Below, one piece after another: positions 25,124-64,000 of a DNA stretch of 64,000 bases. Origin of the DNA: a candidate division WOR-3 bacterium (GTDB taxonomy: Bacteria; Hydrothermota; Hydrothermia; UBA1063); the NCBI GenBank assembly GCA_039803305.1, contig JBDRYG010000001.1:5-64004 (forward strand), written 5' to 3'. The notes beneath the pieces were generated by a model. The model was not told the DNA's origin. It saw only the letters and a program-made list of their open reading frames with translations, and searched no databases. Position 1 is the first letter of the stretch; each line of letters begins with the position of its first letter. The position numbers were made by a program, and so were the translations under genes.

Positions 25124-25138
25124 AACCTGCTCACCTCC

Positions 25139-26092
25139 TCACAAAACCCCTGCCATTTGTTTTAAAATTGCAACCCGCTTTTCTATTGGCGGATGGGTGC
25201 TCCAGAGGTTAGCCCACAGGGAATCCTTTTCGGAAAGGGAACTTTTCTTTGGATCACTGATAAAAAGGTGGGAAACGGCATCACTTACCTGCATCGGTCT
25301 TGTGTAATTGGCTATCTTCTCTAAAGCCGATGCAAGAGCTAAAGGATTCCTTGTGATACTAACAGAACCAGCGTCTGCCATATATTCCCTCGCCCTGGAA
25401 ATGGCAAGGGCCATGAGTCTCCCTATGATCGCAGCAAATATAACCACTACAAGGAGAATCAGCCACAAAAGAATTTCTCCACCTCCGCTGTCTCTATCTC
25501 TCCTTGCCCTTCTACCACCCCAGTAAAGGTTAAACCTGATAAAGTCAGCAAGAATAACAATTGCACCTACGAGAACCGCAACCATCGTCATTGTAAGTAT
25601 GTCCCTGTTTTTCACATGACTGAGCTCATGAGCCATAACCCCTTCTAATTCTTCCCGATTTAACAATTTTAAAAGCCCTGTAGTTGCGCATACCGATGCA
25701 TGCTTTGGATCCCTGCCTGTGGCAAAGGCGTTGGGAGAAGGCTCATCCATAACATAAACCTTCGGCATGGGAAGTCCAGCTGCAATACTTAGCTCCTGCA
25801 CGACATTTACAAGCTGCCTTTCTTCGTAGTCAGAAAGATTTGGTTCTCTTGCCCTGACAGACGCGAGGACAATTTTATCCCCCCAGTAATAGGACACTAA
25901 AGCCTGGAACAGCGCCAGGATTACTGCTAAAAATGTATAAAAGCCCCCGCCCCCAAAGAAATGATCGAGAAGCCTGCCAATAAGGTACAAAATCACAAAA
26001 AGGGTAAGGACTAAAAGAAATGTTCTCCTTTTATTCCTTGAAGTGATCTTTACGAAATCAAGGGCACTCATAAATAACACCTCCTTTCTCAA
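25139..26092 (-). CDS. htpX: HtpX-type M48 zinc metalloprotease (paralog 2)
   Basis: HELSHVKNRD HExxH motif; end-to-end collinear with paralog 1 (e.g. ITRNPLALASALEKIANY shared). Confidence 0.8.
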   Translation of the reverse strand: MRKEVLFMSALDFVKITSRNKRRTFLLVLTLFVILYLIGRLLDHFFGGGGFYTFLAVILALFQALVSYYWGDKIVLASVRAREPNLSDYEERQLVNVVQELSIAAGLPMPKVYVMDEPSPNAFATGRDPKHASVCATTGLLKLLNREELEGVMAHELSHVKNRDILTMTMVAVLVGAIVILADFIRFNLYWGGRRARRDRDSGGGEILLWLILLVVVIFAAIIGRLMALAISRAREYMADAGSVSITRNPLALASALEKIANYTRPMQVSDAVSHLFISDPKKSSLSEKDSLWANLWSTHPPIEKRVAILKQMAGVL

Positions 26093-26733
26093 AACTCAAC
26101 CCTAACCCCACCCCTCTCCTGGGGGAACTCAAGAAAAGACTCCAACTTAAATCCAAACATTTTTGCTACTAAATTAGAAGGAAAAGAAAGGCAAAGGGTA
26201 TTAAGCCGTCTCACACAGTCATTATAGTACTGTCTTGCATAGGCTATTCGGTTTTCAGTGCTTATTATCTCTTCCTGCAAAATCATAAAGTTCTGTGATG
26301 CTTTAAGTTCGGGATAGTTCTCCACAATAACAAGAATCCTCTTTATGATATTCGAAATGCTACCTTCAATGCTCCCCTTCTCCTTCATGTCAGTAACTGA
26401 AATTGCTCTGGTGCGTAATTCAGCGATTTTTTCGAGAAGCTCACGCTCATGTTTCATATAGCCTTTAACCGTTTCCACAAGGTTCGGGATAAGGTCGTAT
26501 CTTCTCTTGAGCTGAACATCAAGTTGAGAAAAAGCTTCCTTCACTCGCACCCTCCATCTTACCAGCGCGTTATAAGTAAGGAAAACATAAAATGTGATAC
26601 AAACTATTATGATTACCAATACATGGGTCCACTGCATAGTTAATATAATAGTCCCGTCTGCTTGATTTTTCAATATCATCTTCCTACAAATCAGTTTTAT
26701 CCCTTTCTGGTTCCAACACGCTCCTTGTAACAC
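26089..26733 (-). CDS. lemA: LemA family membrane protein; true start likely the internal Met near 26637 (MQWTHV...)
   Basis: TM helix followed by YNALVRWRVRVKEAFSQLDVQLKRRYDLIPNLV, characteristic of LemA; 4-nt overlap with the downstream htpX. Confidence 0.7.
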   Translation of the reverse strand: MLQGACWNQKGIKLICRKMILKNQADGTIILTMQWTHVLVIIIVCITFYVFLTYNALVRWRVRVKEAFSQLDVQLKRRYDLIPNLVETVKGYMKHERELLEKIAELRTRAISVTDMKEKGSIEGSISNIIKRILVIVENYPELKASQNFMILQEEIISTENRIAYARQYYNDCVRRLNTLCLSFPSNLVAKMFGFKLESFLEFPQERGGVRVEF

Positions 26734-32100: not shown

Positions 32101-33794
32101 GTGGGGTTAGAACCTGAGGTATATCTCCCCCAGTTGTAGGAACCGCTTATTATCTGCCTTGTCCATCCAAGAGGTGGGAAATCTGGTGGAAAGAATGTGG
32201 ATGCAGCTACGGTAGAATCATCCCATAATTCAACATATAGTTTAGCTGTATTATTGTTATGGTAATCATCAGGATAAACTCCTACCTGTAAGGTATCAAA
32301 GCCAAGATTGGAAAAATAAATGTGTACCGGCATTGAGACCACAGCGTATTCGCCGGGATTTAATGCCACAGGATATGAAAAACCTTGAGATGCACCCACA
32401 TTTACAAATGCATAACCTAAATCAACCGAGGAGACGGGTGTATTTCCCGAGTTAACAACCACAACATAGATCGAATCTGTAACACCGCGTTTTAATACAG
32501 GAGCAATTCTTCTAGCATCTAAAACACATAGGTCAGAGTTAAATATTCTTTGTTCCATTTCCACAATGTGTCCACCGCAGGTAAGCACAAGCTCATTACC
32601 AGGTCTCCAACGGTTTACATCCGCAATCTTGACACCGTAATCGGCAGCTTCAGCAATCTTGGGTAAAATCCCAACAAGTGGCCTTCCAAAAGGAGAGTAG
32701 GCAAACCAGAGGGAAAAGCTAGTATTAGTAGTTCCTGTATTTGTTAGGACAACTTCTTGTCCTGGAATTTCTCTAAGGAAATCCCCTATTTCTATTTCAT
32801 TATTTCCCGCTATTCCCCAGGTGCTGTAAAGTGCATAGGCAACTCCGGAAAATGCACTTCCCGTCCAGTTCCATACCGAAAGCTGATAGGAAGTAGAGCC
32901 GTGCACAATGCAAACCTCAGGCCCAGGCATTGCGGGATTTATGTCGCCAATGGCGATATCATTGACACTCGAAAGCCCCGTATATATAGTTTGAGTCTGC
33001 CACGAAGTTCCATTCCAGTAAGCCATGGCAAAATCTGACCCACCACCAGTATAAACTTCATTTCCAGGTAAATCAGGATTTACATCCCCTATTGCAACTG
33101 CTCTATATCTCTGTGTCCTTCCCGTAAATGTTACCCTGACTGTATCAAAGGATGTCCCATTCCACTTGGCGATCATGAAGGCGGAAGGATTATTATTTGC
33201 CACGTTAAATACAATATCCCTTGCTACACCATCGTTGTCCGCATCGCCTATTACAATATTATTGATATAATCTCCAGAACCTACTCCAATACTATCCCTC
33301 GCCACCCAGTTAACCGCCCCAGGATCCCATTCAAACCAGCGAAGCCATATTTTTCCGGCAACAGCAGCATTATCCGCAGTCAAAATATCGGTATACTCGT
33401 CTCCATCCACATCCCCGATACATACCGCATGCTCTGTAGCGCCCGATGGGAAGGAATATGGAGTTTCTATCCTGAACTTCCTCGTTCCAAAAGCCACACT
33501 TGAGGTGTCAGTAGCAATAATTAAATACCTTGTTCCACCACTTTGAACCGATACAACCCTTATAGTATCGTCACTTAAGCCCTTAAATTGTGTCCCTACA
33601 GCTACCTGTCTCGTTAGGTTTGCTGAAGAACCATAGAATATATAGTTTGTATCAATCAAAGGAGCAGGAACCTTGGACATACTGCCCACCCATATAGGGG
33701 TTTCAACAGGTATGGGGGGCACATCATCAACCTTTGCTTTCTGGGCAGTTGCCATACCCAGAAGCAATATCAACACTATAAACCCTTTAGGCAT
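29154..33794 (-). CDS. Very large secreted protein with FG-GAP/integrin-alpha-like beta-propeller repeats, multiple beta-sandwich domains and a T9SS C-terminal sorting domain
   Basis: Signal peptide MPKGFIVLILLLGMATAQ; repeated xIGDVDGDxxxD / IGDADNDG / IGDVNPDLPGNEV / IGDINPAMPGPEV calcium-binding-like FG-GAP motifs; tail EISIYSVTGQKVATL...GVYIVKM. Confidence 0.6.
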   Translation of the reverse strand: MPKGFIVLILLLGMATAQKAKVDDVPPIPVETPIWVGSMSKVPAPLIDTNYIFYGSSANLTRQVAVGTQFKGLSDDTIRVVSVQSGGTRYLIIATDTSSVAFGTRKFRIETPYSFPSGATEHAVCIGDVDGDEYTDILTADNAAVAGKIWLRWFEWDPGAVNWVARDSIGVGSGDYINNIVIGDADNDGVARDIVFNVANNNPSAFMIAKWNGTSFDTVRVTFTGRTQRYRAVAIGDVNPDLPGNEVYTGGGSDFAMAYWNGTSWQTQTIYTGLSSVNDIAIGDINPAMPGPEVCIVHGSTSYQLSVWNWTGSAFSGVAYALYSTWGIAGNNEIEIGDFLREIPGQEVVLTNTGTTNTSFSLWFAYSPFGRPLVGILPKIAEAADYGVKIADVNRWRPGNELVLTCGGHIVEMEQRIFNSDLCVLDARRIAPVLKRGVTDSIYVVVVNSGNTPVSSVDLGYAFVNVGASQGFSYPVALNPGEYAVVSMPVHIYFSNLGFDTLQVGVYPDDYHNNNTAKLYVELWDDSTVAASTFFPPDFPPLGWTRQIISGSYNWGRYTSGSNPTCTPLDAPAMAGYPSYNASAGSQARLITSVINVGPVSRKVKLRFYMYHDPGYSTSYDSIYVEYSLDGTNFTTLQGYQRYSATAGWAPEEVEIGDFLGGTQLYVAFRAKSAYGNNMYIDSVRVFVTEPTAADTDAQILSVNVPKPVIQGDNNSVSITLKNSGLNPITSLTLFYTLGGVDTVFETWTGNLPAGMIMTYNFQEPLVPPDTGLITLYAGVELAGDAIPENDTVSTTLYVWPYAQDLPYAHNFDEAWENSINPPFGGWKIIDGGDEGVPTVNNNDWHRFVAATPARTVARVYFSPVENQNDWLISPRLRIPGYGTYTLSYWHWYRDYSTSTLDSGRVLISFDDGNSWIELAKYSNESDSGYRSVDLTPHIIPRIGSAEYFRIAFHYGARDEYYWWVDDFSVSFAPDTTPPMVQTLRTPTYTYNTGPDTLIIVVSDDSPFSVEAFAVVNDTVIVSFSQDFEPGIDTILVEIPGRPAGTLFDGYLAVGDVNGNGWQGHGAWWKLIAYDAGTPSIGAVRDPDPGVRLGWARPRQSLRIYGGVAYYFTGFYPGDVVAVRFTPQYTPARVDSVVALLFGTASPIHVKIYADNNGIPGEVLFDTLITSPAVYPNYLRLDLSSANIMVNGDYHVGIEWTATNAPYPTSDAGSNTNRSTYFEASSSTWYDWVGFDWIIRSVVTYFPRSKAYVANHTPSNAKRNPALVRYAITGKVEDEGTTKYIEKYTVLRGTTSGGPYDVLGATSDITFTDYTIQHETQYFYVVRMDYVNPDTMTYSTEVSITTDFVGPQFSAFAYDTGGVNNIWISVIITDPSGIYRDTLYYSINGADFAFATNDSIVGSTYYYTIPGLNIGDNVDLYFVALDNSAWRNPSRFPETGYISFEVTSITDLKPKAFAFNAKSLSSASRGFEFAYALPERSEVEISIYSVTGQKVATLVKGTREAGYHTVRWNGKDERGSAVGSGVYIVKMITPKKTFTSKLILAK

Positions 33795-34020: not shown

Positions 34021-35259
34021 ATGCTCAGGAACAGGATTCATATTTTGTTTCTATTATTGATACTGCTATTCAACTTTCCGGCACCGCATTTCGTGCATAA
34101 AGAGAAAGGTAAAAAGAATATAAACCAAATTAAAACACAAAAAACTGCATTCGTAACATACGAAACTGAATATATTTTAGAATTTGAAGAGCCTTTTGAT
34201 TCCATCATATTTTTAGCGCAGGATAAAAGCCGGAACTTTAAAGGGAATAAACTGAGTTTAAGGCTAAATCCAGGGATAAACAGGTTTCAACTGGAAAGAC
34301 ATGCAGGGCACACCGTTGATACTCTCCAATATATCATCTACAAAGGAAGTAAGAAAACAAGGATATCGGTAGTTTCCGGCTATATCACCCCAATTTTTAA
34401 AATTCTGCGTTATGTAGGGCAAGATAATCCAGATCTTGAGATACACTACTTTTTGTATCTAGAAAAAAGCTGGTTACAACTTACAAGGACCGGTTTGAAG
34501 AAAGTCACAAAGCCAGACTTTGAATCATATAACTTAAACATCCTTCTGGATAAGACCATCTTGCCCGAGGTAAAAAGTGAAAAAAAGCCGGTGCTACTTA
34601 TTTCAGAAGATGAAACAAATGCACAAAATTTTCGTGAAGCTTTTATCACAGGGAATTCCCTTAGGTTACGCATAAAAAATATAAAAATCTCGTCCCAACG
34701 AAAAGAATATATGGACACCCTTCTGATTCTTGAGCCGTATTTTCTACCTGTTGCAGGCAGAATTTCGGGGCTGACTTTCGAAATTCCCATCACAAATCTG
34801 TATGAACTTTACATGCAAAATCCTGAGAGTATCTCTATCATCCTGAACGATATCATAAATTTCTGCAAAATCCCTCAAATAAAAGAAGTGGTGCTTGGCG
34901 ATAGTCATTTCCTCATCGCTGAACCGCCGGAATTTTCCCACTATCCCAAAGTAGAGATCTACTCCGACACGGAAAGAATTTTCCCTAAGATTCTCTTCGA
35001 AGGATACCAGCTACTTCCAGGAAAAGAAAGATCTCAAAGATATGTGATAAAGACCCTAGTAAATGGAGAGACGGTAGATAGCATAGAAATAATCACATCA
35101 CCTGTCAAGGGATCTGAACCAATTAAACTACATGGAGAAAAGTGGAAAATCTCCATTACACTTCTGCCAGCCCAGGGAAATCCAACTTTCCTTATTTTAT
35201 TTTTCATTGTTACCGCCTTAACTTATACTTTAAGTAAAAGTGGGAGGCTTCGACCATGA
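34021..35259 (+). CDS. Hypothetical secreted or membrane-anchored protein (signal peptide; C-terminal hydrophobic helix plus basic tail)
   Basis: N-terminal MLRNRIHILFLLLILLFNF; C-terminal ...AQGNPTFLILFFIVTALTYTLSKSGRLRP; 4-nt overlap with the downstream pdp start. Confidence 0.35.
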   Translation: MLRNRIHILFLLLILLFNFPAPHFVHKEKGKKNINQIKTQKTAFVTYETEYILEFEEPFDSIIFLAQDKSRNFKGNKLSLRLNPGINRFQLERHAGHTVDTLQYIIYKGSKKTRISVVSGYITPIFKILRYVGQDNPDLEIHYFLYLEKSWLQLTRTGLKKVTKPDFESYNLNILLDKTILPEVKSEKKPVLLISEDETNAQNFREAFITGNSLRLRIKNIKISSQRKEYMDTLLILEPYFLPVAGRISGLTFEIPITNLYELYMQNPESISIILNDIINFCKIPQIKEVVLGDSHFLIAEPPEFSHYPKVEIYSDTERIFPKILFEGYQLLPGKERSQRYVIKTLVNGETVDSIEIITSPVKGSEPIKLHGEKWKISITLLPAQGNPTFLILFFIVTALTYTLSKSGRLRP

Positions 35260-44378: not shown

Positions 44379-44950
44379 CGATGCAAAATTTACAATTATC
44401 AAAAGATGAGAAAATTACGCTTTTAAAGCTAGCAAGACAAACTTTGGATAATAAGTTTTCGGGTTTGAAAGACCCTGTACTTACAGACCCTACTGAAAAC
44501 TTGAAAGCCTTTTGTGGTGCATTCGTAACACTTAGAAAACACAATCAACTTAGAGGCTGTATCGGTTATATAAAAGGTATTAAACCTCTTTGGGAAGAGA
44601 TTGTAAACTTAGCAAAAGAGGCTGCTTTCCATGACCCAAGGTTTTACCCATTAAGACCAGAGGAACTTAAAGAAGTAGAAATAGAGATATCAGTCTTAAC
44701 ACCCTTACAAAAAATTTCAGACCCCAACCTTATTGAAGTTGGGAAACACGGCATTCTCATAAAGAGAGGTTTTATGCAGGGACTTCTCCTTCCACAAGTT
44801 GCCATTGAAGAAAACTGGGACAGGGAAACTTTCCTGGACCATACTTGCCTTAAAGCTGGACTTTATCCAGGGTGTTGGAAAGATGAAAAGACGGAAATCT
44901 ACATTTTTGAAGCCTTAGTATTCAGTGAAAAAGAATTTGGACTAAAATAG
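44375..44950 (+). CDS. amrA: AmmeMemoRadiSam system protein A (AMMECR1 domain)
   Basis: GAFVTLRKHNQLRGCIGYI AMMECR1 signature; 4-nt overlap with amrB. Confidence 0.75.
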   Translation: MTMQNLQLSKDEKITLLKLARQTLDNKFSGLKDPVLTDPTENLKAFCGAFVTLRKHNQLRGCIGYIKGIKPLWEEIVNLAKEAAFHDPRFYPLRPEELKEVEIEISVLTPLQKISDPNLIEVGKHGILIKRGFMQGLLLPQVAIEENWDRETFLDHTCLKAGLYPGCWKDEKTEIYIFEALVFSEKEFGLK

Positions 44951-47485
44951 AAAATTATATCCAGCACGAATTTTCTTGACAGATTGAACACTTTTTGTAT
45001 AGAGTGTTTCTACGAAAAGTTCCCCCGATTTGTGCTTGTACTTCAAATTCATATTAAATGCATACCTCTCTGAAGTCGGCACAAAGTAAGGTAAATCATT
45101 GTATCTAACGCCAAAAGGAGCATTTATACTCAAATTAAATATACCATGCCAGCTGTCTTTTATGAAATACCATGCCCCCTGCAATGATAGGGCCTTGTAA
45201 GTCTCCCCTTTATACCAGGTATTAACAGGTCCGAACCTGATAGAAAGGCCCCTAAACCTAAAATCGAAACTGCTACTTAGATATGAATATGACAGGTTGT
45301 CCTGTACGTTACGCTCGAACATAGGTGTAATCCAGAGTGACCTACAAACAAAAAATTCCAGGGAATACCTCTCCTCTCTTTTTACGTAGGGTCGGACAAA
45401 AGAACTGTCTACGAAACTCGTAACATATGCAGTGGCTGTATGGGGACCTACCTTTAATTGCCCTATTAAAGACCTAACAAGGTCATATACACCCCTCTTT
45501 TGTGACAACATGATATTTAATCCACGGCTTTCACTCCGGGAATCAAGTTCAAACTCTAAGGTATTACTAAGGGATGTATCCTTGATTCCCAAGGATAAAA
45601 AATGTCTCTCAAAATCACCTAACTGCGAAGGGGTATAAACACCAAAACTTCTATCTAACTCATACGTCCCTGCTGGTGATCTGTAAAACCTTTCTTCTTT
45701 GTAATAAACCAATTCTGGCATTTTGCTTGTTCCAAGACTCATCCTCGTGTGACCCTCTAAATTATAGGTTAATTTCAATCTGTATAGAGGATAACTCCAG
45801 TGTTCACGCAAATAAAATATTTCAGAAAAAAAATTCATCCTGCTTTCGCTTTCTAATATCTTGATCATCAAGTACGGCCAGATTTTCTGTAAATTTTTAC
45901 TGAAAACAAAACCCCCGGAGAAATTTAGATTTCTTAAATTTTTACCAATTTCAACGAGTAATGGTTTATCAGTGTTCTGGAAGATTAAAAATCCATGAGA
46001 TTTGGGCGAGAGCCAGCTTAATATCAGTTTTGCGTCAATTGTATCGGTTTGAGTCAAATTCAATAAAATCCCAAAAGGACCAGGATTTGATGTAAGCCTT
46101 AAAGCACTGCGAGGGTTTTTATTATCTAATCCAATTGTATATTCAACAAAAGTATTTGCCCAATCGAGATGAATATTTCCAAAGTGCTCTAAGAGGCGAC
46201 CCTTGCCCTCTATACCAAAAAACTTACTTAAATATTCCTTAAAATCTGAAAAATTCTCTGTTTTCCACCTAACGCCGGAGGTCAGTTGAATGTTGTTTAT
46301 TTCGACTTTTTTACTCAAAGAGGCCTTAAAACCCAGATTATCACTATCCCCTACTTTACTCAGTTTATTTAAATCGCTATAGGAAGCTTTGAAATCAATA
46401 CTTAATTTACCATCATAAGTTAGGGATATCACATTGTGCTCCCGAGGGGCAGGAATTCTAAAAAGCGGTTCATAATGACCGGCACCGTAACCTACATATT
46501 TGTATGCACTTTGTATATTATCAAATATGTAACTTCCTCTATTTATACCCACAAACTCAAAATAGACGATATACTCGCCTTTCCCATCACCAGCAAAGAC
46601 AAAGAAAGAATCCTGAAGGTTATAGCTACCTTCGCTATTCTTTATTCCGCCCTTGAACTCCACATAGTCCTCGATATCACCAACCTGGCTTAAAAACTTT
46701 TTTAGCGTATCCAGAATCCCTTCGTAGTACTTCATGGTACTCCCCAGATGTTCGAACACTACTTTTAAACCACCTGATGAATAAAAAAATGACCCGTATA
46801 CAGAGGGCAAGTTATTATATGTTGCATATTCTACGAAAAATCTGTCTGCTCCTTTAAGAAGATCGTAATCCTTTATCCATAATATCCCAGACTGGTAATC
46901 AAACTCATACTTCGACTTATCCACAATCATATCACCTTTAATCACCTTTAAAGAGCCAGGCACTATCATATAACCATAGTCTACGAAGTATGGTCCTGAA
47001 TTCGGATATTTAACACTTAACTCTTTCTTAACCGTTGAGGTGTTTGTTGAACCATAAGTAAAGCCAATATTTTGAAAACACCCCGAGAAACCTAAAAGCT
47101 TTACTTCGGGCAGAGCTATCTTACCAAATTTTAAGAAATTATTAGATGAGTCGCTCACTTCGAAGAAGATCTCGTCCATGTCCTTAAGCAAGGTAGTGTA
47201 ATAATCAGTTCCGTAGTCAGCTTTACTATCTAAAAGTCTCCCCTTTATAAAGTACTTTTTTGAAATTGTTCCACTTAAAGTAATATCAAGTCTCTGAGAC
47301 AAGCTATAGGTAAAGCCGTTAAAAGACACAAAGAAGCCTTTTGAACCACTAAAATCAATAGACTCAGTATTTTTCTCCAAATCCAGAGAGTCTAAAGTTG
47401 ATGTATCTTCCGATGTTGAAATCTTAGGATTTGTAAACCTTAAAACATAAGCAAGAACTAAAGCTCCCCAAAAAGGTAAAGCCAC
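44942..47485 (-). CDS. Large hypothetical outer-membrane beta-barrel-like protein (847 aa), function unknown
   Basis: Hydrophobic N-terminus, abundant alternating amphipathic beta-like segments rich in Y/F/G, C-terminal ...GYNFLF aromatic terminus typical of OMPs. Confidence 0.35.
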   Translation of the reverse strand: MALPFWGALVLAYVLRFTNPKISTSEDTSTLDSLDLEKNTESIDFSGSKGFFVSFNGFTYSLSQRLDITLSGTISKKYFIKGRLLDSKADYGTDYYTTLLKDMDEIFFEVSDSSNNFLKFGKIALPEVKLLGFSGCFQNIGFTYGSTNTSTVKKELSVKYPNSGPYFVDYGYMIVPGSLKVIKGDMIVDKSKYEFDYQSGILWIKDYDLLKGADRFFVEYATYNNLPSVYGSFFYSSGGLKVVFEHLGSTMKYYEGILDTLKKFLSQVGDIEDYVEFKGGIKNSEGSYNLQDSFFVFAGDGKGEYIVYFEFVGINRGSYIFDNIQSAYKYVGYGAGHYEPLFRIPAPREHNVISLTYDGKLSIDFKASYSDLNKLSKVGDSDNLGFKASLSKKVEINNIQLTSGVRWKTENFSDFKEYLSKFFGIEGKGRLLEHFGNIHLDWANTFVEYTIGLDNKNPRSALRLTSNPGPFGILLNLTQTDTIDAKLILSWLSPKSHGFLIFQNTDKPLLVEIGKNLRNLNFSGGFVFSKNLQKIWPYLMIKILESESRMNFFSEIFYLREHWSYPLYRLKLTYNLEGHTRMSLGTSKMPELVYYKEERFYRSPAGTYELDRSFGVYTPSQLGDFERHFLSLGIKDTSLSNTLEFELDSRSESRGLNIMLSQKRGVYDLVRSLIGQLKVGPHTATAYVTSFVDSSFVRPYVKREERYSLEFFVCRSLWITPMFERNVQDNLSYSYLSSSFDFRFRGLSIRFGPVNTWYKGETYKALSLQGAWYFIKDSWHGIFNLSINAPFGVRYNDLPYFVPTSERYAFNMNLKYKHKSGELFVETLYTKSVQSVKKIRAGYNFLF

Positions 47486-49283: not shown

Positions 49284-50489
49284 TCATAAAACTAAATCTT
49301 TCGGGACATCAGTAAGGTTAACGGTTTTGCCATTTAAATCAATACAAAGGGTATCTTCTATCCTGATACCAAAACCCTTTGATGGATAATAAAGGCCAGG
49401 CTCAATGGTGAACACATCTCCTTTCTCCAAAACATGATCAGAAAACATGTTGATTACTGGAAGTTCGTGGACATCAAGGCCAACACCATGCCCTAAGCTG
49501 TGAACATACCCCTCCTGAGCCTGCTGATTCTTTCTGAGGGTCTCATGCCCTTTCCCCTCGAAATAATCTAGAACCAGTTCTTCCAATTCTTTGCACGGTT
49601 TCCCTTCTTTTGCATTTTCTAAAGCTTTTTCTTGTATTTCTTTCACCTGCTCAAAAGCTTCAATTACCTCATGAGAAGGTTCTCCAAAGGAGTAAGTTCT
49701 TGTCATGTCAAAAAAGAAACCTCCACCATATTCATGAGGATAAATATCAAAAACAATAGGCACTCCAACTCTTATCGGTTCTTCGTCATTTCCGTGATTG
49801 TGAGGAACCCCACCGTCTCTTCCCTGTGCAATTATCATACCCGCACCATCAATAAGCCCCTGATCGATCAATTCCCTTCTAAGATACTGCCTTGCCATAC
49901 CAATGGTAAATGGGCGCCCATTATCCTCAAGAATCCCATTCTTTCGCGAAAGGGCTTTCAAATATTCTATTAGTCTTAAAAAGGCAGATTGAGTTCTCTT
50001 AGCAACGCTCTTTATTTTTTCAATCTCTTCCTCTGTCTTTCTCCTTCTTGCCATATAAACCAAGTCCTGCTTTAACGGTGGAAAATCGATATTTGAAAAC
50101 TCCTTCTGAAGTCTCTGGAAAACATTAATTACGTTATTATTGAATCTTTCGGATTGAATTGATAATTTTCCACTGACACCGAAGGTCTGAAAAATCTTTT
50201 TATAATAAGCAAGGCCTCTTTCAACTGGATCTTTTATAAAGTTTACTTCTTTCAGATTAAGGGTAGAAAAGGGAATTTTCTCATAATCTACAAGATGAGC
50301 TACATTGTCTCTCTCCATGTCAACATACAAAAGTATCGGCTTCCCGCGCCTTGGTTTGAGGACGATTCCAGAACCTATGTGAGCACCCTTTGTAAGATAA
50401 AAGATTGAGGTAGATGACTTACCACCCTCTACCATCAACCAATCAATTCCATTTTGCTCCATCAATTCATCTAAATAGCTATAGTTCAT
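49284..50489 (-). CDS. M24 family metallopeptidase (Xaa-Pro aminopeptidase/dipeptidase-like)
   Basis: Pita-bread metal-ligand region HSLGHGVGLDVHELP and FTIEPGLY. Confidence 0.7.
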   Translation of the reverse strand: MNYSYLDELMEQNGIDWLMVEGGKSSTSIFYLTKGAHIGSGIVLKPRRGKPILLYVDMERDNVAHLVDYEKIPFSTLNLKEVNFIKDPVERGLAYYKKIFQTFGVSGKLSIQSERFNNNVINVFQRLQKEFSNIDFPPLKQDLVYMARRRKTEEEIEKIKSVAKRTQSAFLRLIEYLKALSRKNGILEDNGRPFTIGMARQYLRRELIDQGLIDGAGMIIAQGRDGGVPHNHGNDEEPIRVGVPIVFDIYPHEYGGGFFFDMTRTYSFGEPSHEVIEAFEQVKEIQEKALENAKEGKPCKELEELVLDYFEGKGHETLRKNQQAQEGYVHSLGHGVGLDVHELPVINMFSDHVLEKGDVFTIEPGLYYPSKGFGIRIEDTLCIDLNGKTVNLTDVPKDLVL

Positions 50490-50528
50490 ATCGAAATTTT
50501 AAATTTTGGATTTCGAATAAGCAAAAAG

Positions 50529-51788
50529 CTAAATCACTGGCCTCAATAGTTCAATTAACCTCTCGATGATACTTTGGTACCCAGCATCTTCAGCATCATA
50601 TGTTGTGATACTGGCGGAAAATCTAATATTTTTACAAGGAGGAAAAGTGCTGGTTTTCAACAAATTCACTACTCTGGTATACACAGTGTCTGTGCCCTCA
50701 GAATTTGTAAAAGGTAAAAGAATAACGAACGAATTCTTACCAAATCTTCCAATAACATCTGTTCTCCTAAGGTTCTGAATTAATGTTTGGGCAATTTTTT
50801 GAACTGAGCTTTCCACAGCATAACTTCCATAGATATTTACCAACTTATCATAGTTCTCAATTCTGAGCATCATTGTCGAGAAGGTGAATCCATATCTTTT
50901 TGCTTGTTCACACTGAAGATTAAGCAACTCTTTTAAAATTGCCTCACTAAAGGTCTGGCTCACGGTATCTTTATAAGCAAGAGCTCCAAATTCCTTTTTG
51001 TATTCCATCTTTTGGTACACAATAGAGTAGAAGTAAGAGAAGAAGACGAGAAGATCATGCTCTTCGGGCGATGGATTTTTAGATTTCTCAAATATCAAAA
51101 GCACTATCGAATCGACAAAATCCTCATCTAAGCCAAAGGGAATAATCCAAGTTGACTCGTAATCCAAAATCTCGAGTAACACTTTGATCACAGGCCACTC
51201 GAAATAGCCTTTGTCGGCTACTATTGGGTACCCTATAGATAGTAAACCTTCCGACTCAATTCCCAGATTAATCTTATCTCGTAGTTCTCTGTGGCTGTCA
51301 TCGGTGCTAAAAACGGGGAAAAATATGGAAGGCTGATTTTTACTTCTTTTAAAAAGCAAAACTGACTTGGAATCAAAGATACTTTGCAGAACCGGGAATG
51401 TGTCGGCAACCACCTGGGGAAAGGAGTTAGCCTTTAAACTCGTGTCAAATACATCTCTCAATTTTGTCAAGATCGCCGAGGTCGGTGCAGCCTCTAACTG
51501 TTCTAACTTTGAAAAGGAAAAAACAAGGAACTCAAATCCTTCAACTTCAAATTTTTGGGAGAATACCTGGAAAAACTCGCCTCTTACCATAGTTTTGTAT
51601 TCTAGGTTATCTCTGATCTCTATGTTAATTATTTCCTTAAGATTAATCCCAATTAGATCATCGCGCTGTACTTCAAAAAGCATTGCAAATCCAATAGAAG
51701 CATCAAGAATGTTCCCATTGAAATCTGTCAAAACAATGGGAAGAGGGCTTGCACCAAAAGCAGACTTATAAAGTTCCCTTTCAAACAT
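50529..51788 (-). CDS. Sensor protein with C-terminal degenerate GGDEF domain (GKNSF in place of GG[DE]EF; RxxD I-site retained) and N-terminal PAS/GAF-like region
   Basis: C-terminal ...NLRRTDVIGRFGKNSFVILLPFT... aligns to the canonical ...RxxDxxxRYGGEEFxxxLP...; also RIENYDKLVNIYG in place of IDIDHFKxIND. Confidence 0.6.
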   Translation of the reverse strand: MFERELYKSAFGASPLPIVLTDFNGNILDASIGFAMLFEVQRDDLIGINLKEIINIEIRDNLEYKTMVRGEFFQVFSQKFEVEGFEFLVFSFSKLEQLEAAPTSAILTKLRDVFDTSLKANSFPQVVADTFPVLQSIFDSKSVLLFKRSKNQPSIFFPVFSTDDSHRELRDKINLGIESEGLLSIGYPIVADKGYFEWPVIKVLLEILDYESTWIIPFGLDEDFVDSIVLLIFEKSKNPSPEEHDLLVFFSYFYSIVYQKMEYKKEFGALAYKDTVSQTFSEAILKELLNLQCEQAKRYGFTFSTMMLRIENYDKLVNIYGSYAVESSVQKIAQTLIQNLRRTDVIGRFGKNSFVILLPFTNSEGTDTVYTRVVNLLKTSTFPPCKNIRFSASITTYDAEDAGYQSIIERLIELLRPVI

Positions 51789-51839
51789 TTTTTTATTATA
51801 CGCACCGCCTTCTGATTTATCAAGTCAAAAAGCATTAAA

Positions 51840-54728
51840 TTGACTGAATATGTTATTAAACCTATAATTTTACATAACTTGGAGGGCATGATGCGCAGTG
51901 AGGATAGGTTAAAGTGGATCATTTTTGCAATAATATCCTTCGGAATGTGGTTACTCTTCTTCCTGACAACAGCACCAACGATTGTCTTCTGGGATGTAGG
52001 TGAGTTTTTAGCATGCTCAGCTATATTTGGCGTTCCTCATCCACCAGGAACACCTCTATATGTACTTTTGGGACGATTTATGACGATCCTTCCGTTACCT
52101 TTAGATCAACTTTATAAACTTATTTATCCCCATTCTTTTCCCGTAAATACTGTGCTCAAAATAACTTTGATTGCAATGGTCACAGGTGCATTAACAGCCG
52201 GTTTTGTATATCTCATACTTTTCGATTTAGTAAGGCTTATATTTAAGGAAACACCACCCATTCTTGCCCATATAGCCGGAATATTTGCAGGACTTATGTC
52301 CATGCTTGCAAAAGTCAACTGGGAGAATTCCATTGAGGCTGAAACTTATACACCATCAAACTTTATTATTGTAGCCTTAACATGGCTTGCTTTAAAGTGG
52401 TATAAAGAAAAGGATGACCCTGCCTCAACGAGGTATTTAATATTCTCTGGATACATACTTACGGCAGGGATAGGATTTCATTTGACCTCTTTTGCATTCT
52501 TTCCTGCCCTTTTACTTTTTACCTTTGTTATTAAAAAAGAACTATACTTAGATAAATTAACTATAGGACTTCTTGGGTTGACTTTCTTCCTACTTTCATC
52601 GCTGCAAATTGCCTATGAACCTAGCACTTTAGGATTCGCTGTACTCATCATAGGCATAGCTTTGCTGACATATTATCTTTTCACCACATCCTTTAAAAGG
52701 CTTAAATCATCGGAAACACCTTATGAAATAGCGTGGGTAATTCTTGCAATTATTTATATCGCAGGTCTTTTTACAAAAAGCCCTTATCTGATTTTGGGAC
52801 CCGCAATTTTAATCTCCATTTTATTCTATGTTGAGACTAAAGCTTACAGAGACTGGAAGGGCCTTGCTGTAATCTTCATGTTTATCGGTTTTTTACTGGA
52901 AATCACAATGGTACTACGAGCAATCCATAATCCATACATAAATGAGGCAGATCCTTCTACTTTCAAAGCGTTCATGGATGTATTGACAAGGAAACAATAT
53001 GGTCCTATGAATATGCTTCCCAGAAAGATTCCTTTGGTTGAACAACTTGGAAACTACTGGGTATACTTCTCATGGCAATATCAGCAACTTCTGATCCCAA
53101 TAACAATACTTGCCATTTTTGGAGTTATAATCCACATTACAAGTGATAGAAAAACCCTGGCACTTGTTGGTTTTACCTTTTTAATTCTGAGTCTTGGATT
53201 CCTCTGGTATCTCAATCTAAAAGATTCTCCTTCACAGCCGGTTAATCCTCTTAACCTGAGAGAAGGCCTTACAGAAGTAAGAGATAGAGACTATTTCTAC
53301 TCAGGAGCCTACATTTTCACTGCACTCTATGCGGGCCTTGGTTTATTCATGCTATTAAAACTTATGTTTGAAAATATGAAGAAAAAGGCACTAATTCCTA
53401 CCACTTTTGGTGCATTTGTCACAGCGGGAGCCACTTTTGGTCAAATTTATGTCTATTATCCTCAGATTGATAGACATGGTAACTATTTAGCTGAGGATTA
53501 TGCGTACAACCTTTTGATTTCGCCAGGATCGGAGGAAAAATGTATTTTATTTACCAATGGTGACAACGACACTTTTCCACTCTGGGCAAATCAAACAGTT
53601 CTTGGAATTGGTAAAAATGTTATCATCGCGAACATGAGTCTTCTCAACACCAACTGGCACATATACCAGATAAAAAAGCAAGGAGCGCCGATAAGTTTCC
53701 CTGATTCTATTATATGGAAGCTTCCGCCGGTTTTCCCCACAATGGATGGCAGTGTAATGTACCTTGTCGACCTAATGATTCGAGATCTGATCGCAACTTC
53801 AGCAGGTTATACTACAAACGACTATATAACAATCAATCCAGCAAAAATTTTCCCAAGGTATGGGTTTGAAAATGTGGACATTAAGATCCCTCGGGTATAT
53901 CTTTTAAGTAAAGAAGAGTTTGCAAGAGAAGTAATTGAAAAGGCTGACAGCTTTAAAATACCGATATTTTTCTCCATGACAGTTTCTTCCCAACATTACG
54001 ACGGGTGGAACAGTTATCTAAGATTGGAAGGAATGGCAATGAGGGTAATGAATAGACCATTAAAGACGTTGAATGAGATTAAGGAAGGGATTGACCTACA
54101 AAGAACTATTTACTTAACAAGAGCAGGAATGCCGTTCCGGGAGTACATTGAAAAATACGGCGAAATAATTCCACCATTCGAAAGCTACAGATACAGAGGG
54201 GTATTTAACAGAAAAGTATACAAAGATGACAACCAAGAGAGAATGATAAGGAACTATGCAAGTGTATGTTTTAGAACTGCCCTTTATTTCGAAAATGAGG
54301 GTAATTTAAAAGAGGCAAGAGATGAATGGGATTTCGCGAGAGAGCTTATTAAACAAGTTCGACTTGATCAGTCTGCAATTCAACGAGAATTACCTTTCAT
54401 TTACTACAAAATTGCGGATCTCTCCTTGAAAACGGGTGATTATAAAAAGGCTATTGAGACCATAGACGAAATTAGTGAATCCTTACAAATCAGTACTTTT
54501 TATGTCATAAAAGCTAAAGCACTTCTCGGCTTGGGAAAACTTGATGAGGCAATCTCCAATCTCGAGGCAGCAGTGCAACTCAATCCACAAGACCTTGAAG
54601 CGTACCAAAATTTAGCAGAACTTTATTTGAAAAAAGGTGAACTAGGAAAAGCAAAAAAGATTATTGATGAAATTTTAAAAATTGACTCCACAAACAGGTG
54701 GGCAAAAGAAATGGCAAAAACTTTTTAA
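51840..54728 (+). CDS. DUF2723/TMEM260-like polytopic membrane protein (predicted GT-C fold glycosyltransferase) with C-terminal TPR repeats; the likely true start is the ATGATG at about 51888
   Basis: N-terminal WDVGEF...HPPGTPLY DUF2723 hallmark, at least 10 TM helices, C-terminal TPR-like repeats (LGLGKLDEAISNLEAAVQLNPQDLEAYQNLAELYLKKG); the ORF track begins at a TTG, and GGAGGG precedes the ATGATG. Confidence 0.65.
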   Translation: MTEYVIKPIILHNLEGMMRSEDRLKWIIFAIISFGMWLLFFLTTAPTIVFWDVGEFLACSAIFGVPHPPGTPLYVLLGRFMTILPLPLDQLYKLIYPHSFPVNTVLKITLIAMVTGALTAGFVYLILFDLVRLIFKETPPILAHIAGIFAGLMSMLAKVNWENSIEAETYTPSNFIIVALTWLALKWYKEKDDPASTRYLIFSGYILTAGIGFHLTSFAFFPALLLFTFVIKKELYLDKLTIGLLGLTFFLLSSLQIAYEPSTLGFAVLIIGIALLTYYLFTTSFKRLKSSETPYEIAWVILAIIYIAGLFTKSPYLILGPAILISILFYVETKAYRDWKGLAVIFMFIGFLLEITMVLRAIHNPYINEADPSTFKAFMDVLTRKQYGPMNMLPRKIPLVEQLGNYWVYFSWQYQQLLIPITILAIFGVIIHITSDRKTLALVGFTFLILSLGFLWYLNLKDSPSQPVNPLNLREGLTEVRDRDYFYSGAYIFTALYAGLGLFMLLKLMFENMKKKALIPTTFGAFVTAGATFGQIYVYYPQIDRHGNYLAEDYAYNLLISPGSEEKCILFTNGDNDTFPLWANQTVLGIGKNVIIANMSLLNTNWHIYQIKKQGAPISFPDSIIWKLPPVFPTMDGSVMYLVDLMIRDLIATSAGYTTNDYITINPAKIFPRYGFENVDIKIPRVYLLSKEEFAREVIEKADSFKIPIFFSMTVSSQHYDGWNSYLRLEGMAMRVMNRPLKTLNEIKEGIDLQRTIYLTRAGMPFREYIEKYGEIIPPFESYRYRGVFNRKVYKDDNQERMIRNYASVCFRTALYFENEGNLKEARDEWDFARELIKQVRLDQSAIQRELPFIYYKIADLSLKTGDYKKAIETIDEISESLQISTFYVIKAKALLGLGKLDEAISNLEAAVQLNPQDLEAYQNLAELYLKKGELGKAKKIIDEILKIDSTNRWAKEMAKTF

Positions 54729-54741
54729 TTAGGAGGTAAAA

Positions 54742-55869
54742 ATGGCTCACGCTTATACACCGGGTTTGAAAGTTACGAGAAAAACAATTTTGAGGAAAGA
54801 AAGAAGGCTTCCATTACCGGGAGAGGTGATAGTAAAAGTCGGCGATAAGGTTAAAGCCGAGGATATTGTCGCCAAAACGGAATTACCCGGTAATGTTCAG
54901 CCAATAAATGTTGCGGGGCTCCTTTCAATTGCACCGCAGGAAATAGAGAGCGTAATGCTGAAAAAAGTTAATGAATTCGTTAAAAAAGGAGAACCAATAG
55001 CTGAATCTAAAAGCTTTTTTGGGCTTTTTAAAAACAGTGTTACATCTCCAGTAGACGGTATTATCGAGAGTATTTCGAATATAACGGGACAGGTAATTTT
55101 AAGAGAACCACCAATACCAATTACAGTAAACGCATATATCGATGGAGAAGTAAAGGAGGTAATACCTAACGAAGGTGTTGTTGTGGAAACGGTTGCTAGT
55201 TTCATCCAAGGAATATTTGGAATAGGAGGCGAGACCATAGGTGAAATTTATGTAGCTGCCTCAACTCCAGATGAAGAGTTAACCGAGGAAAAGATAAAAG
55301 AAGAAATGAAAGGTAAAATTGTTGTAGGTGGCAGTTTTGTGACTGCAGCAGCCCTAAGAAAGGCGGTATCCTATGGTGTAAAGGGTATTGTAGTAGGTGC
55401 AATTGATGACAAAAATCTAAAAGAATTTCTTGGCTATGACATCGGTGTCGCTATTACAGGAAATGAGCAAAAGGGCATTACCCTGATGATAACAGAAGGT
55501 TTTGGAAAACTTGCTATGGCAAAGAGAACTTTTGAACTCTTTAAAGAGCTAAACGGTAAAAAAGCTTCTATGAATGGTGCAACGCAAATAAGAGCAGGGG
55601 TAATAAGGCCTGAAGTTATAGTGGCTCTCGAAGGCGAGACCTACGAAGCGAAGGAAGAAGCAGAAGAACTTAAAGAAGGACTTGTAGTCGGGACCATGGT
55701 AAGGGTCATAAGAGAGCCTTACTTTGGCAGGATAGGTAAAGTTACCGCCCTCCCGCCTGAACTAAGAGTAATTGAAACTGAGGCAAAAGTCAGAGTTTTA
55801 GAGATAGAATTTGATGATGGTAAAAAAGTAATCGTTCCCAGAGCCAATGTGGAGATAATCGAAGAATAA
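54742..55869 (+). CDS. Hypothetical protein with an N-terminal barrel-sandwich-hybrid-like region and a central Rossmann-like segment; function unknown
   Basis: VIVKVGDKVKAEDIVAKTE...TSPVDGIIESISNITGQVILR resembles the biotinyl/lipoyl-like (RnfC_N / NqrA_N-type) fold; GKIVVGGSFVTAAALRKAVSYGVKGIVVGA glycine-rich beta-alpha-beta; 13-nt gap after the DUF2723 gene. Confidence 0.3.
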   Translation: MAHAYTPGLKVTRKTILRKERRLPLPGEVIVKVGDKVKAEDIVAKTELPGNVQPINVAGLLSIAPQEIESVMLKKVNEFVKKGEPIAESKSFFGLFKNSVTSPVDGIIESISNITGQVILREPPIPITVNAYIDGEVKEVIPNEGVVVETVASFIQGIFGIGGETIGEIYVAASTPDEELTEEKIKEEMKGKIVVGGSFVTAAALRKAVSYGVKGIVVGAIDDKNLKEFLGYDIGVAITGNEQKGITLMITEGFGKLAMAKRTFELFKELNGKKASMNGATQIRAGVIRPEVIVALEGETYEAKEEAEELKEGLVVGTMVRVIREPYFGRIGKVTALPPELRVIETEAKVRVLEIEFDDGKKVIVPRANVEIIEE

Positions 55870-55881
55870 TAGGAGTATCAA

Positions 55882-57087
55882 ATGATAAGAGATAATAAAC
55901 TACAGGTTGCAAAAATTGTTAATAGAATTGAGGAATCAGCATCATTCTCAGTACTCGGAAAGGCTAAAGAACTGGAAAAAAGGGGCGAAAGGGTAATCCA
56001 CCTGGAGATAGGTGAACCCGATTTTACTCCACCTAAAGAATCAATAGAATCTTTAATAGAATCCTTGAACCGAGGTGAAACACACTATACGACAGCACAG
56101 GGAATTATCGAATTACGGGAGGAAATAGCAAGATATGAAAAAAGGTTCCGAAACATAGATATTTCACCTTCTCAGGTCGTTATTACCCCGGGAGCTAAGC
56201 CTATGATTCTCTTTGCGCTCCTTTCCGCAATTAATCCCGGTGAAGAGGTCCTCTACCCTGATCCAGGCTATCTTTCTTATAAGAGTCTCATCAGATTTAT
56301 GGGGGCAATTCCTGTACCTTATAGGTTGGATAAAAACCGAAATTTTGCTATTGATTTTGAAGATCTAAGGAGAAAAATCACTAAAAAAACGACTTGCATA
56401 ATCATAAATAGTCCATCCAACCCAACGGGGATGGTCCATACGAGAGAAGAACTTGAGGAGATTTTAAAAATCGCTGAGGATCATAATCTTCTCATAATAT
56501 CTGATGAAGTATACTCACGCATATATTTTGATGGAAACCAGCATATCAGCATTATGAACCTCACCGATAATTACAGCAACATAATCCTTATAGATGCCTT
56601 CTCTAAAACCTATGCAATGACAGGTTTTAGACTTGGCTACGGTATTGTACCCAAAGAGCTTGTCAGCGCAATAGTTAAACTAATTCAGAACTCATTCTCG
56701 TGTGTTCCTGAGTTCGTTCAAAGAGCAGGTATCACTGCGCTGCAAAAAGGAGAATATTTTATAGACAATATGGTTTCAGCCTTCGCTGAAAGAAGAGACA
56801 AAATGTTCGAAATTCTAAGCCAAGTAAAAGGACTCAAAGTTCACAAGCCTCAGGGATCATTTTATTTCTTCCCTGAAATTCTCGTAAATATTTCTTCCGC
56901 AGACTATGCTGATTATGCTTTGTCTAATTACAAAATTGCACTCCTACCCGGGGAAGCTTTTGGCGAAAACGGAGAAGGACACATAAGAATTTCTTTTGCT
57001 AATTCCCTTGAAAACCTTCTGGAGGCTGCCTATAGAATCGCAGAGAGTATAGAAAAATTGGAAAAAGAGCGAGGATTTAAAGCTTAA
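55882..57087 (+). CDS. Class I/II PLP-dependent aminotransferase (aspartate aminotransferase-like)
   Basis: SKTYAMTGFRLGY PLP-lysine motif, SPSNPTG, 401 aa. Confidence 0.75.
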   Translation: MIRDNKLQVAKIVNRIEESASFSVLGKAKELEKRGERVIHLEIGEPDFTPPKESIESLIESLNRGETHYTTAQGIIELREEIARYEKRFRNIDISPSQVVITPGAKPMILFALLSAINPGEEVLYPDPGYLSYKSLIRFMGAIPVPYRLDKNRNFAIDFEDLRRKITKKTTCIIINSPSNPTGMVHTREELEEILKIAEDHNLLIISDEVYSRIYFDGNQHISIMNLTDNYSNIILIDAFSKTYAMTGFRLGYGIVPKELVSAIVKLIQNSFSCVPEFVQRAGITALQKGEYFIDNMVSAFAERRDKMFEILSQVKGLKVHKPQGSFYFFPEILVNISSADYADYALSNYKIALLPGEAFGENGEGHIRISFANSLENLLEAAYRIAESIEKLEKERGFKA

Positions 57088-57944: not shown

Positions 57945-58463
57945 ATGCGAAAACTCTATTTAATTATTATTTTTTTATTATTCTCTGCATCCTGTGCCCC
58001 CAGAAAAGTGATGCATAAAAAGCCGGCAATTGAAGAAATCCAAGAAAATCTCACGTACATTTATAATTTTTTTGCATCGGAACAGAGAACGGCAGAATTC
58101 ACAATATTAATGGGCGAAACACAATTTAAAGGCACAGTATCACTAACAAGGCGCGACTCAGAGTGGATATTTATATTAAAAAGCCCTTTATATCCTGGAA
58201 TCTACAAAATTCTTGAAGATACAATACCTGTTTTGGGGTATATCAAAGATGGTATCCAAAAAATCCCGCACAGATTTGTGGGATCCACGCTTATCTTAGA
58301 TCTCCCAGATGGCCCGATAAATATAGAAGTAGAAAATAATTTGCCAGTGTTGGTAAGATTCAACAGGACCTTAGTTATAATAAATTACACAAAAAATAAA
58401 ATACCGCGTACTATTAAAATCCAGTCGGAGAACACAACTCTACTTATTAGTTTAAAGATTTGA
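57945..58463 (+). CDS. Putative lipoprotein (lipobox LFSASC) of unknown function
   Basis: Signal peptide MRKLYLIIIFLLFSASC with Cys at +1 of the SPase II site; beta-rich mature region. Confidence 0.45.
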   Translation: MRKLYLIIIFLLFSASCAPRKVMHKKPAIEEIQENLTYIYNFFASEQRTAEFTILMGETQFKGTVSLTRRDSEWIFILKSPLYPGIYKILEDTIPVLGYIKDGIQKIPHRFVGSTLILDLPDGPINIEVENNLPVLVRFNRTLVIINYTKNKIPRTIKIQSENTTLLISLKI

Positions 58464-63472: not shown

Positions 63473-64000
63473 TCACCTCACTTTAACAAACTTTACCTCA
63501 CCAACTTTTCCTCCGCTCTCTATACGCAAATAGTAGACCCCTTTCGGTAAATAATCTACCGTAATTTTCCAATTATTAAACTCACCCTTTTTCACTAGCC
63601 TTCCGTTCACATTGTAAATCTCGTATTTACCACTCTCGGCGTTAGTCATCACAACCTCGCTACCCACGATGGAATATAATTTTTTGTTTTTGGCAAGCAC
63701 CTCTCTCACTCCTATTCCCCTTGCCTTCACAAAGCTCATAAGCCCTATTACATCCTGAGTGCGCATATAATAAAGTGGAAATCCTAACAATACTACACTG
63801 TCTCCAAATATCACTCCACATGCCCTCCCCTCAAATACCTCACTATTACTGTATGAATCAAAATGCAGTATCACATCTCCACTACTCACCCTGTACGCCT
63901 CTATACCTTGCAACCTCCCTCCCCAAGACGGCAATATCCTACTAGGCTCTACCCTCACCTCTAACCCGTATTCATCACTATAACCCCTCACAAAATCAAT
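63473..64000 (-). CDS. C-terminal fragment of a T9SS-sorted secreted protein (gene continues beyond the window end)
   Basis: Tail YEIYNVNGRLVKKGEFNNWKITVDYLPKGVYYLRIE matches the Por secretion C-terminal domain; no signal peptide at the in-window Met, so the true start is upstream of 64000. Confidence 0.5.
   Translation of the reverse strand: MDFVRGYSDEYGLEVRVEPSRILPSWGGRLQGIEAYRVSSGDVILHFDSYSNSEVFEGRACGVIFGDSVVLLGFPLYYMRTQDVIGLMSFVKARGIGVREVLAKNKKLYSIVGSEVVMTNAESGKYEIYNVNGRLVKKGEFNNWKITVDYLPKGVYYLRIESGGKVGEVKFVKVR

Follow-up and report, generated by a model that had tools for sequence, protein, structure and literature searches.

A gene on the minus strand of a 64-kb stretch of DNA from an uncultured hot-spring bacterium of the WOR-3 / Hydrothermia lineage (the whole stretch is referred to here as the window) encodes a PAS-GAF-helix-GGDEF protein. 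We predict that this protein is a dead diguanylate cyclase that acts as a receptor or effector for cyclic diguanosine monophosphate (c-di-GMP), bound at the allosteric inhibitory site (I-site), and assign this reading a probability of about 0.6. The original prediction for this DNA, a dead GGDEF protein with an intact I-site and a probable role as c-di-GMP receptor, is upheld at the level of sequence comparison by loss of the active site (A-site) throughout the family and by the invariance of R298, R341, D344 and R372. The gene and its C-terminal domain are as follows.

50529 to 51788, minus strand: whole GGDEF gene from the list of open reading frames (ORFs), 419 aa, with an ATG start and the stop codon at 50529-50531.
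50532 to 50975, minus strand: GGDEF domain, residues 272-419, catalytically degenerate and with a shortened C-terminus (Pfam, NCBIfam, and alignments to PDB chains and canonical cyclases).

Loss of the catalytic site

The A-site was placed by phmmer alignments against the solved cyclases 3ign, 6zxm, 6d9m and 4urs, and independently by a MAFFT alignment with the canonical proteins P0013 (RFGGEEF), P0014 (RFGGDEF) and P0015 (RYGGEEF), the core of which is ungapped. The two placements concur for the A-site and the I-site motifs. A profile match to PleD sets an offset of 18 residues, such that R309 corresponds to PleD D327, E326 to D344, R341 and D344 to R359 and D362, and R372 to R390. In PleD, we take D327 to be metal-binding, N335 and D344 to be guanine-binding, and R359/D362 and R390 to belong to the I-site.

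50727 to 50741, minus strand: G350-K-N-S-F354 at the GG[DE]EF position of the A-site (phmmer and MAFFT).
50856 to 50864, minus strand: R309-I-E311 at the metal-binding D-x-D position (PleD D327-I-D329; alignments and PleD offset).

Both sets of alignments confirm the earlier reading of GKNSF at the GG[DE]EF position. The metal-binding block is degenerate, as had also been claimed, but the residues ENYD (311-314) taken for its D-x-D are out of register by two residues, the true position being R309-I-E311. The canonical 'IND' is replaced by V317-N318-I319, which places a variable Val (V317) at the guanine-binding Asn position. The canonical 'GD' is replaced by V325-E326, with E326 at the guanine-binding Asp position (E or D among relatives). 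The C-terminal ADxALYxAKxxGRN segment is missing, and with it the phosphate-binding Lys/Arg block: where cyclases have ADKALYKAKEEGKNR, the GGDEF protein finishes with a shorter ...IIERLIELLRPVI. As a check for a mis-assigned motif, a regular-expression scan for [GAS]G[DE]EF was made, and gave zero occurrences elsewhere in the protein or in any of the six frames of the window, hence no canonical GG(D/E)EF.

The same position is occupied in family alignments by GKNSF, SRNSF, GKNAF, SKNAF, SKNSF, SNNSF, GKDSF, SKKVL, TKDSF, TEDSF or TENSF, and the metal-Asp position (309) is R, K or T throughout the relatives. An intact catalytic site was found in none of them (0 relatives). Thus, the GGDEF protein is very probably catalytically inactive. 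Judged by these aligned motifs, the whole family is catalytically degenerate, and the loss of catalysis is an old one. Database entries for the family carry the name 'diguanylate cyclase', an automatic annotation that this prediction corrects.

Retention of the I-site

Three features of the GGDEF domain correspond to the residues that bind c-di-GMP in the I-site of known cyclases and receptors.

50757 to 50768, minus strand: R341-R-T-D344, the primary I-site RxxD, five residues before the A-site position; aligns to RQSD, RKSD, RNSD, RDTD and RRTD of cyclases.
50673 to 50675, minus strand: R372, the third I-site residue (PleD R390, Bacillus cereus PelD R395); cyclases have the Arg of 'AER(I/V)R' at this position.
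50895 to 50897, minus strand: R298, in an invariant A-K-R-Y block; P0013 and P0014 have the R of 'RAKRYG' here.

The alignments bear out the claim that an RRTD I-site motif lies five residues upstream of the degenerate motif, and R341 and D344 prove to be invariant family-wide. R372 is placed 28 residues past D344. R298 probably corresponds to the Arg of the secondary I-site, which we take to be R198 in WspR and R313 in PleD. All four residues are invariant across all full-length relatives found, down to 24% identity. When the most distant members (24-34% identity) are added to the alignment, these four residues are among just 37 invariant columns of 419, whereas the A-site position shows nine different non-canonical pentapeptides. 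This pattern indicates that the I-site residues are retained by selection.

Domain architecture

The N-terminal part of the protein comprises two putative sensory domains and a long helix that leads to the GGDEF domain.

51504 to 51788, minus strand: PAS domain, residues 1-95; residues 1-55, with 82% mean identity to the reference, are the best-conserved part of the protein.
51090 to 51422, minus strand: GAF-like domain, residues 123-233; at 49% mean identity, the least-conserved part of the protein.
50982 to 51068, minus strand: long connecting helix, residues 241-269, from GAF to GGDEF; signalling-helix or coiled-coil type in the AlphaFold2 (AF2) model, 70% conserved.

Pfam GGDEF (PF00990) matches residues 272-394 with 60.3 bits against a cutoff of 23.8, and the NCBIfam GGDEF model TIGR00254 matches with 55.4 bits against 37.4. 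A profile search of the PDB matches about 45 solved GGDEF chains. These results agree with the C-terminal GGDEF fold claimed from the outset, as do the Pfam match and AF2 folds with the proposed PAS/GAF sensory modules of the N-terminal half. Pfam PAS matches, which are weak, fall in residues 5-70, and the AF2 model (input of 13 family sequences) shows a PAS-like fold and a GAF-like fold with a helix (residues 97-119) between them. The mean predicted local distance difference test (pLDDT) score of the model is 83.4, and pLDDT is 80-90 across residues 281-410. In a Foldseek search against the PDB, the top matches are sensor-helix-GGDEF proteins (the Idiomarina phytochrome-linked cyclase, DosP and Dcsbis), with GGDEF matches at probability 1.00. 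None of the NCBIfam cyclase equivalogs came close to its own cutoff for the GGDEF protein. The N-terminus, MFE(R/K)ELYK, is common to all homologues. No transmembrane segment was found in the GGDEF protein (the maximum Kyte-Doolittle value over a 19-residue window is 1.55), and by this measure it is soluble and cytoplasmic.

Size and range of the family

A word-indexed search of 5.8 billion proteins recovered 12 family members, 99-33% identical and about 415-424 aa long except for the partial P0004. Those that carry a name are all assigned to 'candidate division WOR-3' or 'Candidatus Hydrothermia'. HMMER was also run exhaustively against 1.84 billion cluster representatives (clusters at 50% identity) with a profile of the N-terminal 268 residues, and found only five clusters that match the whole PAS-GAF half (P0008, P0016, P0017, P0019 and P0020); the remaining matches cover the first PAS half alone. 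With each GTDB species represented by one genome, a pattern scan found the family in four species, all of them WOR-3 / Hydrothermia or an unnamed metagenome-assembled genome (MAG). On these searches, the family is narrow and lineage-restricted.

Some members are duplicated. A tandem arrangement of P0017 then P0016 occurs at L019:5620-8170 and L020:5603-8153. At L005:503-1747, in the same lineage as L019 and L020, the first copy is deleted and the paralogue P0012 faces the glycosyltransferase gene described below. The same P0012 protein is encoded behind an rve-family transposase at L004:2696-5404.

A conserved divergent glycosyltransferase operon

The GGDEF gene has as neighbours a TMEM260-like membrane protein gene of the glycosyltransferase C (GT-C) type, an M24 peptidase gene and a gene for phosphoenolpyruvate carboxykinase (PEPCK). 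The GT-C gene is divergently oriented and is the first of three.

51891 to 54728, plus strand: TMEM260-like (PF11028, formerly DUF2723) GT-C membrane protein, 945 aa, with C-terminal tetratricopeptide repeats (TPR) (Pfam).
54742 to 55869, plus strand: 375-aa barrel-sandwich-hybrid protein with weak Pfam matches only; second gene of the three-gene unit.
55882 to 57087, plus strand: class I/II aminotransferase; third gene of the three-gene unit.

The divergence from a DUF2723 glycosyltransferase module had been noted in the original prediction, and the Pfam matches (PF11028 and TPR) substantiate it, with the start corrected to ATG 51891. This start is the most likely one, as compared with TTG 51840, and tblastn from 51891 gives full-length colinear matches. 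The three-gene unit (51891-57087, plus strand) is conserved, and its promoter region is near-invariant among relatives. The sole DUF2723 paper found in a literature search concerns the human O-mannosyltransferase TMEM260 (PMC10214176), and the bacterial function of DUF2723 appears to be undescribed.

Every orthologous locus with 49-76% protein identity has the divergent pairing. It is kept over a spacer of about 102 bp in L001-L003, L006-L015 and L019-L020, and is retained in L005 with a spacer of about 170 bp. Three sub-families retain it down to 31-34% identity while the opposite flank changes; in L019 and L020 (31% identity), the GT-C flank is retained and the M24-side flank is replaced. 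At L001:11295-12501 (GCA_017880035.1), the M24 peptidase gene is split into 269- and 108-aa parts by a frameshift or as a pseudogene.

Proposed mechanism and alternatives

The ancestor of the protein would have been a sensor diguanylate cyclase that lost c-di-GMP synthesis and retained allosteric binding at the I-site. An intercalated c-di-GMP dimer would bind R341, D344 and R372 of one GGDEF domain and may bridge to R298 of the partner subunit, compare product-inhibited PleD and WspR. In a parallel helical dimer that ends in the GGDEF pair, the ligand would lock the relative position of the two GGDEF domains and thereby alter the PAS/GAF half via the conserved helix 241-269, and the PAS/GAF half would in turn act on a partner protein. 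As the protein has no enzymatic or DNA-binding output domain, its output is expected to be by protein contact, as in PopA, PelD and PssE. The likeliest regulated process may be that of the divergent GT-C/TPR operon (envelope or protein glycosylation), compare PelD and PssE; this is the weakest step, drawn from synteny only. Contact with the GT-C system would have to be made through loops on the cytoplasmic side or through the soluble proteins of the two downstream genes.

Several observations weigh against this proposal. No other GGDEF, EAL, HD-GYP or PilZ gene was identified in the window (50 ORFs of at least 80 aa, Pfam) or in 10 kb on each side, where the extensions beyond the window were taken from near-identical assemblies and the total surveyed, about 84 kb, is 5-7% of a genome of roughly 1.2-1.7 Mb. 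These 84 kb therefore offer no sign that the lineage makes c-di-GMP. A literature search on c-di-GMP in WOR-3 / Hydrothermae found nothing relevant. Arginines of the R298 and R348 type are widespread in GGDEF domains, and therefore RxxD and R372 are the sole discriminating residues. In GT-C proteins, the TPR part usually lies outside the cytoplasm, so that direct contact with the GGDEF protein is doubtful. Finally, P0019-type members (26% identity) follow recA and are not beside a GT-C gene.

Cyclase and phosphodiesterase partner motifs were likewise not found in a six-frame search over 322 kb of sequence. We considered P0013 (GAF-GGDEF, RFGGEEF), the best non-family match with an intact site, as a WOR-3 cyclase, and rejected it, its relatives being Aquificota / Hydrogenivirga. 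The genome that encodes P0008 has, about 6 kb from the locus (L002:908-3961 and L003:908-3961), a gene for a 1017-aa protein with a Guanylate_cyc class III nucleotidyl cyclase domain, AAA_16 and TPR. Thus, cyclic-mononucleotide signalling exists in the lineage.

The lack of any c-di-GMP-making or -degrading gene in the 84 kb or so around the locus would also fit a protein that serves as a pseudoenzyme scaffold, makes no use of c-di-GMP and signals only via PAS/GAF or protein contacts, with the RxxD/Arg cluster binding another anionic ligand or stabilising a dimer interface. The small genomes (contigs that carry the locus measure 1.2-1.7 Mb) point in the same direction, as does the fact that conservation is highest at the PAS N-terminus and not in the GGDEF domain. 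We nevertheless consider such a scaffold unlikely, though more plausible than the other alternatives: the four conserved residues occupy the exact c-di-GMP-binding positions of the I-site, including the third Arg 28 residues past the Asp, no other ligand is known for so precise a triad, and the surveyed sequence is a small part of the genome.

Some GGDEF-EAL proteins, for example Caulobacter PdeA, bind nucleotide without turnover, and the A-site remnant could similarly be a nucleotide sensor for GTP or another nucleotide. The pocket is conserved in the family (R/K309, an invariant N312, E/D326 and x-[KRNE]-[NDK]-S-F), which suggests constraint. This we regard as improbable, given that the metal Asp, motif residues 3 and 4, the 'IND' Asn and the C-terminal Lys/Arg block are all gone, and that no enzymatic domain is linked that such a sensor could control. 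That the protein is still an active diguanylate cyclase, working with a non-canonical motif, as the name in the databases implies and as the activity of the AGDEF variant VCA0965 (PMC3974145) might allow, is scarcely credible, because AGDEF keeps the acidic residues 3 and 4 where GKNSF has N-S, the metal Asp is replaced by R, the C-terminal block is deleted, and 0 family members restore any of these features.

If the receptor prediction is true, it provides a defined c-di-GMP effector for the uncultured WOR-3 / Hydrothermia, with R341, D344 and R372 as the residues concerned and the conserved divergent TMEM260-like glycosyltransferase operon as a candidate target. A more specific proposal, which we consider a long shot, is that the family is a c-di-GMP (or other dinucleotide) switch for the TMEM260-like GT-C/TPR operon or, alternatively, if Hydrothermia are without a cyclase, that the I-site is re-used for a different ligand. 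Such an operon switch, if true, would be the first bacterial link of I-site signalling to glycosylation of the GT-C, protein-O-mannosyltransferase-like kind.

Promoters and inverted repeat in the spacer

The spacer between the GGDEF and GT-C genes was compared among eight orthologous loci (alignment A2), and an extension (A5) brings the total to 10 loci. The features of the spacer and of the gap downstream of the GGDEF gene are listed here.

51795 to 51823, minus strand: GGDEF promoter, TTGATA (51823-51818), N17, TATAAT (51800-51795), with the ATG after 6 nt; 11/12 consensus.
51840 to 51893, plus strand: GT-C promoter and start, TTGACT (51840-45), N17, TATAAT (51863-68), GGAGG (51881-85), ATG 51891; 11/12 consensus.
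51823 to 51845, no strand: inverted repeat AGTCAA-N11-TTGACT, with its right arm formed by the GT-C -35 box and its left arm overlapping the GGDEF -35 box by one base.
50487 to 50524, minus strand: promoter of the downstream M24 peptidase gene, leaderless type, TTGCTT-N17-TAAAAT-N6-ATG 50489 (script scan).

We predict that the spacer consists of two back-to-back sigma-70-type promoters. The arrangement TATAAT-N6-ATG of the GGDEF gene occurs in 9 of the 10 loci, including those of P0017 and P0019 (in a different context), with N10 at the P0012 locus. The TTG of the GGDEF -35 box is invariant in the aligned loci. On the GT-C side, the blocks AGTCAA, ATTATA and CCTCC are invariant in 8/8 A2 loci, and CAT is present in nearly all. 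As the ATG lies only 6 nt past the -10 box, the GGDEF mRNA is predicted to be leaderless, with transcription starting at 51788; the predicted start for the GT-C gene is about 51875. Besides the GGDEF gene (51788, minus), at least six other genes in the window have -10-like hexamers (TATAAT/TAAAAT/TAGAAT) 5-8 nt before an ATG and no Shine-Dalgarno sequence, with gene starts at 6316 (minus), 17791 (plus), 20883 (minus), 34021 (plus), 50489 (minus) and 58501 (plus), and many other genes in the window have strong GGAGG sites. Leaderless mRNAs seem to be common in the source organism.

The 39-bp gap holds a separate promoter for the M24 gene, and this suggests that the GGDEF gene is transcribed as a unit by itself. 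Terminator prediction gave nothing in this gap, and read-through is possible. Co-transcription with the M24 peptidase and PEPCK genes was considered as a functional clue and set aside, being weakened by the M24 gene's own promoter and by the replacement of this flank in L019.

The inverted repeat reported in the original prediction is present exactly at 51823-51845, between the two divergent promoters, where it might be an operator through which a dimeric regulator co-controls both genes. Its standing as a regulatory palindrome did not survive. The arms are merely 6 bp, and perfect 6-bp inverted repeats with loops of 0-20 number 506 in the window (7.9 per kb); at least one occurs in 53% of shuffles of the 102-bp spacer, so that the frequency is at chance level. 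The left arm is unrelated sequence in every orthologous locus, and the right arm is fully accounted for as the invariant -35 hexamer. An operator here is thus highly improbable.

Other genes in the window

Three ORFs are without a Pfam match at E <= 0.01: 44942-47485 (minus strand, 847 aa), 34021-35259 (plus strand, 412 aa) and 57945-58463 (plus strand, 172 aa). The first of these keeps its place after PEPCK in every related locus. Large proteins of secreted type, ending in FlgD_ig or Por_Secre_tail domains, are encoded at 1648-4890 (plus strand, 1080 aa), 29154-33794 (minus strand, 1546 aa) and 63473-63991 (minus strand, 172 aa), and M28 peptidases with the same tail immediately past the end of the window. 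These tails suggest type IX secretion cargo in the source organism. Directly downstream of a LemA gene, two paralogous M48 peptidase genes stand in tandem (24173-26733, minus strand; products of 316 and 317 aa).

Comparison with known systems

The best structural matches to the whole model are sensor cyclases (Foldseek E 1e-17 to 1e-12), and the profile match to 5llw, one of the better ones, has an E of 1e-11. Like the GGDEF protein, the Idiomarina phytochrome-linked cyclase (5llw/6et7) and Dcsbis (4zmu) have their sensor domains first, then a long helix and then GGDEF. These proteins are active, with full catalytic residues and GG[DE]EF, whereas the Hydrothermia family has lost all of them.

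In its motifs, the family is like the characterised degenerate-GGDEF I-site receptors PelD, PopA and PssE. PopA of Caulobacter crescentus is a soluble paralogue of an active cyclase that has a degenerate A-site and a conserved RxxD and serves as an adaptor via protein-protein interaction (PMC12564702). The solubility, the degenerate A-site and the kept RxxD are shared with the GGDEF protein. PopA differs in having two receiver domains in place of PAS-GAF and in its role in cell-cycle proteolysis, of which there is no indication here.

PssE of Listeria monocytogenes (Lmo0531) has been proven to be an I-site receptor, and the adjacent genes need it for exopolysaccharide synthesis (PMC4125290). 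Its GGDEF is degenerate (DKDDA) and has RxxD five residues upstream, the spacing seen in the GGDEF protein, and it binds two c-di-GMP per protein with a Kd of 0.79 uM (PMC4125290). Unlike the GGDEF protein, PssE has another N-terminal part, is encoded in the pssA-E operon and comes from another phylum. Three active cyclases have been identified in Listeria, as against none so far in the Hydrothermia lineage.

PelD is known from Pseudomonas aeruginosa, and its B. cereus orthologue consists of a GAF domain and a degenerate GGDEF domain, in which c-di-GMP binding is abolished by each of R363A, D366A and R395A (PMC7112168). The same order of domains is found in the GGDEF protein, and R363/D366/R395 are of the same spacing class as R341/D344/R372. 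PelD, too, is encoded beside a glycosyltransferase system, which it activates. PelD is membrane-anchored and lies in a pel operon, whereas the GGDEF protein is without a transmembrane segment and has an extra N-terminal PAS domain; its neighbour is GT-C/TMEM260-like, whereas that of PelD is PelF. Membership of the PelD family itself was rejected: PelD_GGDEF (PF16963) scores 12.5 bits against a cutoff of 27, the PDB searches gave no PelD match, and there is no membrane anchor and there are no pel genes. A protein of this kind is to be expected, several phyla having yielded characterised receptors with a degenerate GGDEF domain, and the predicted Hydrothermia receptor would be a narrow addition to a well-known class.

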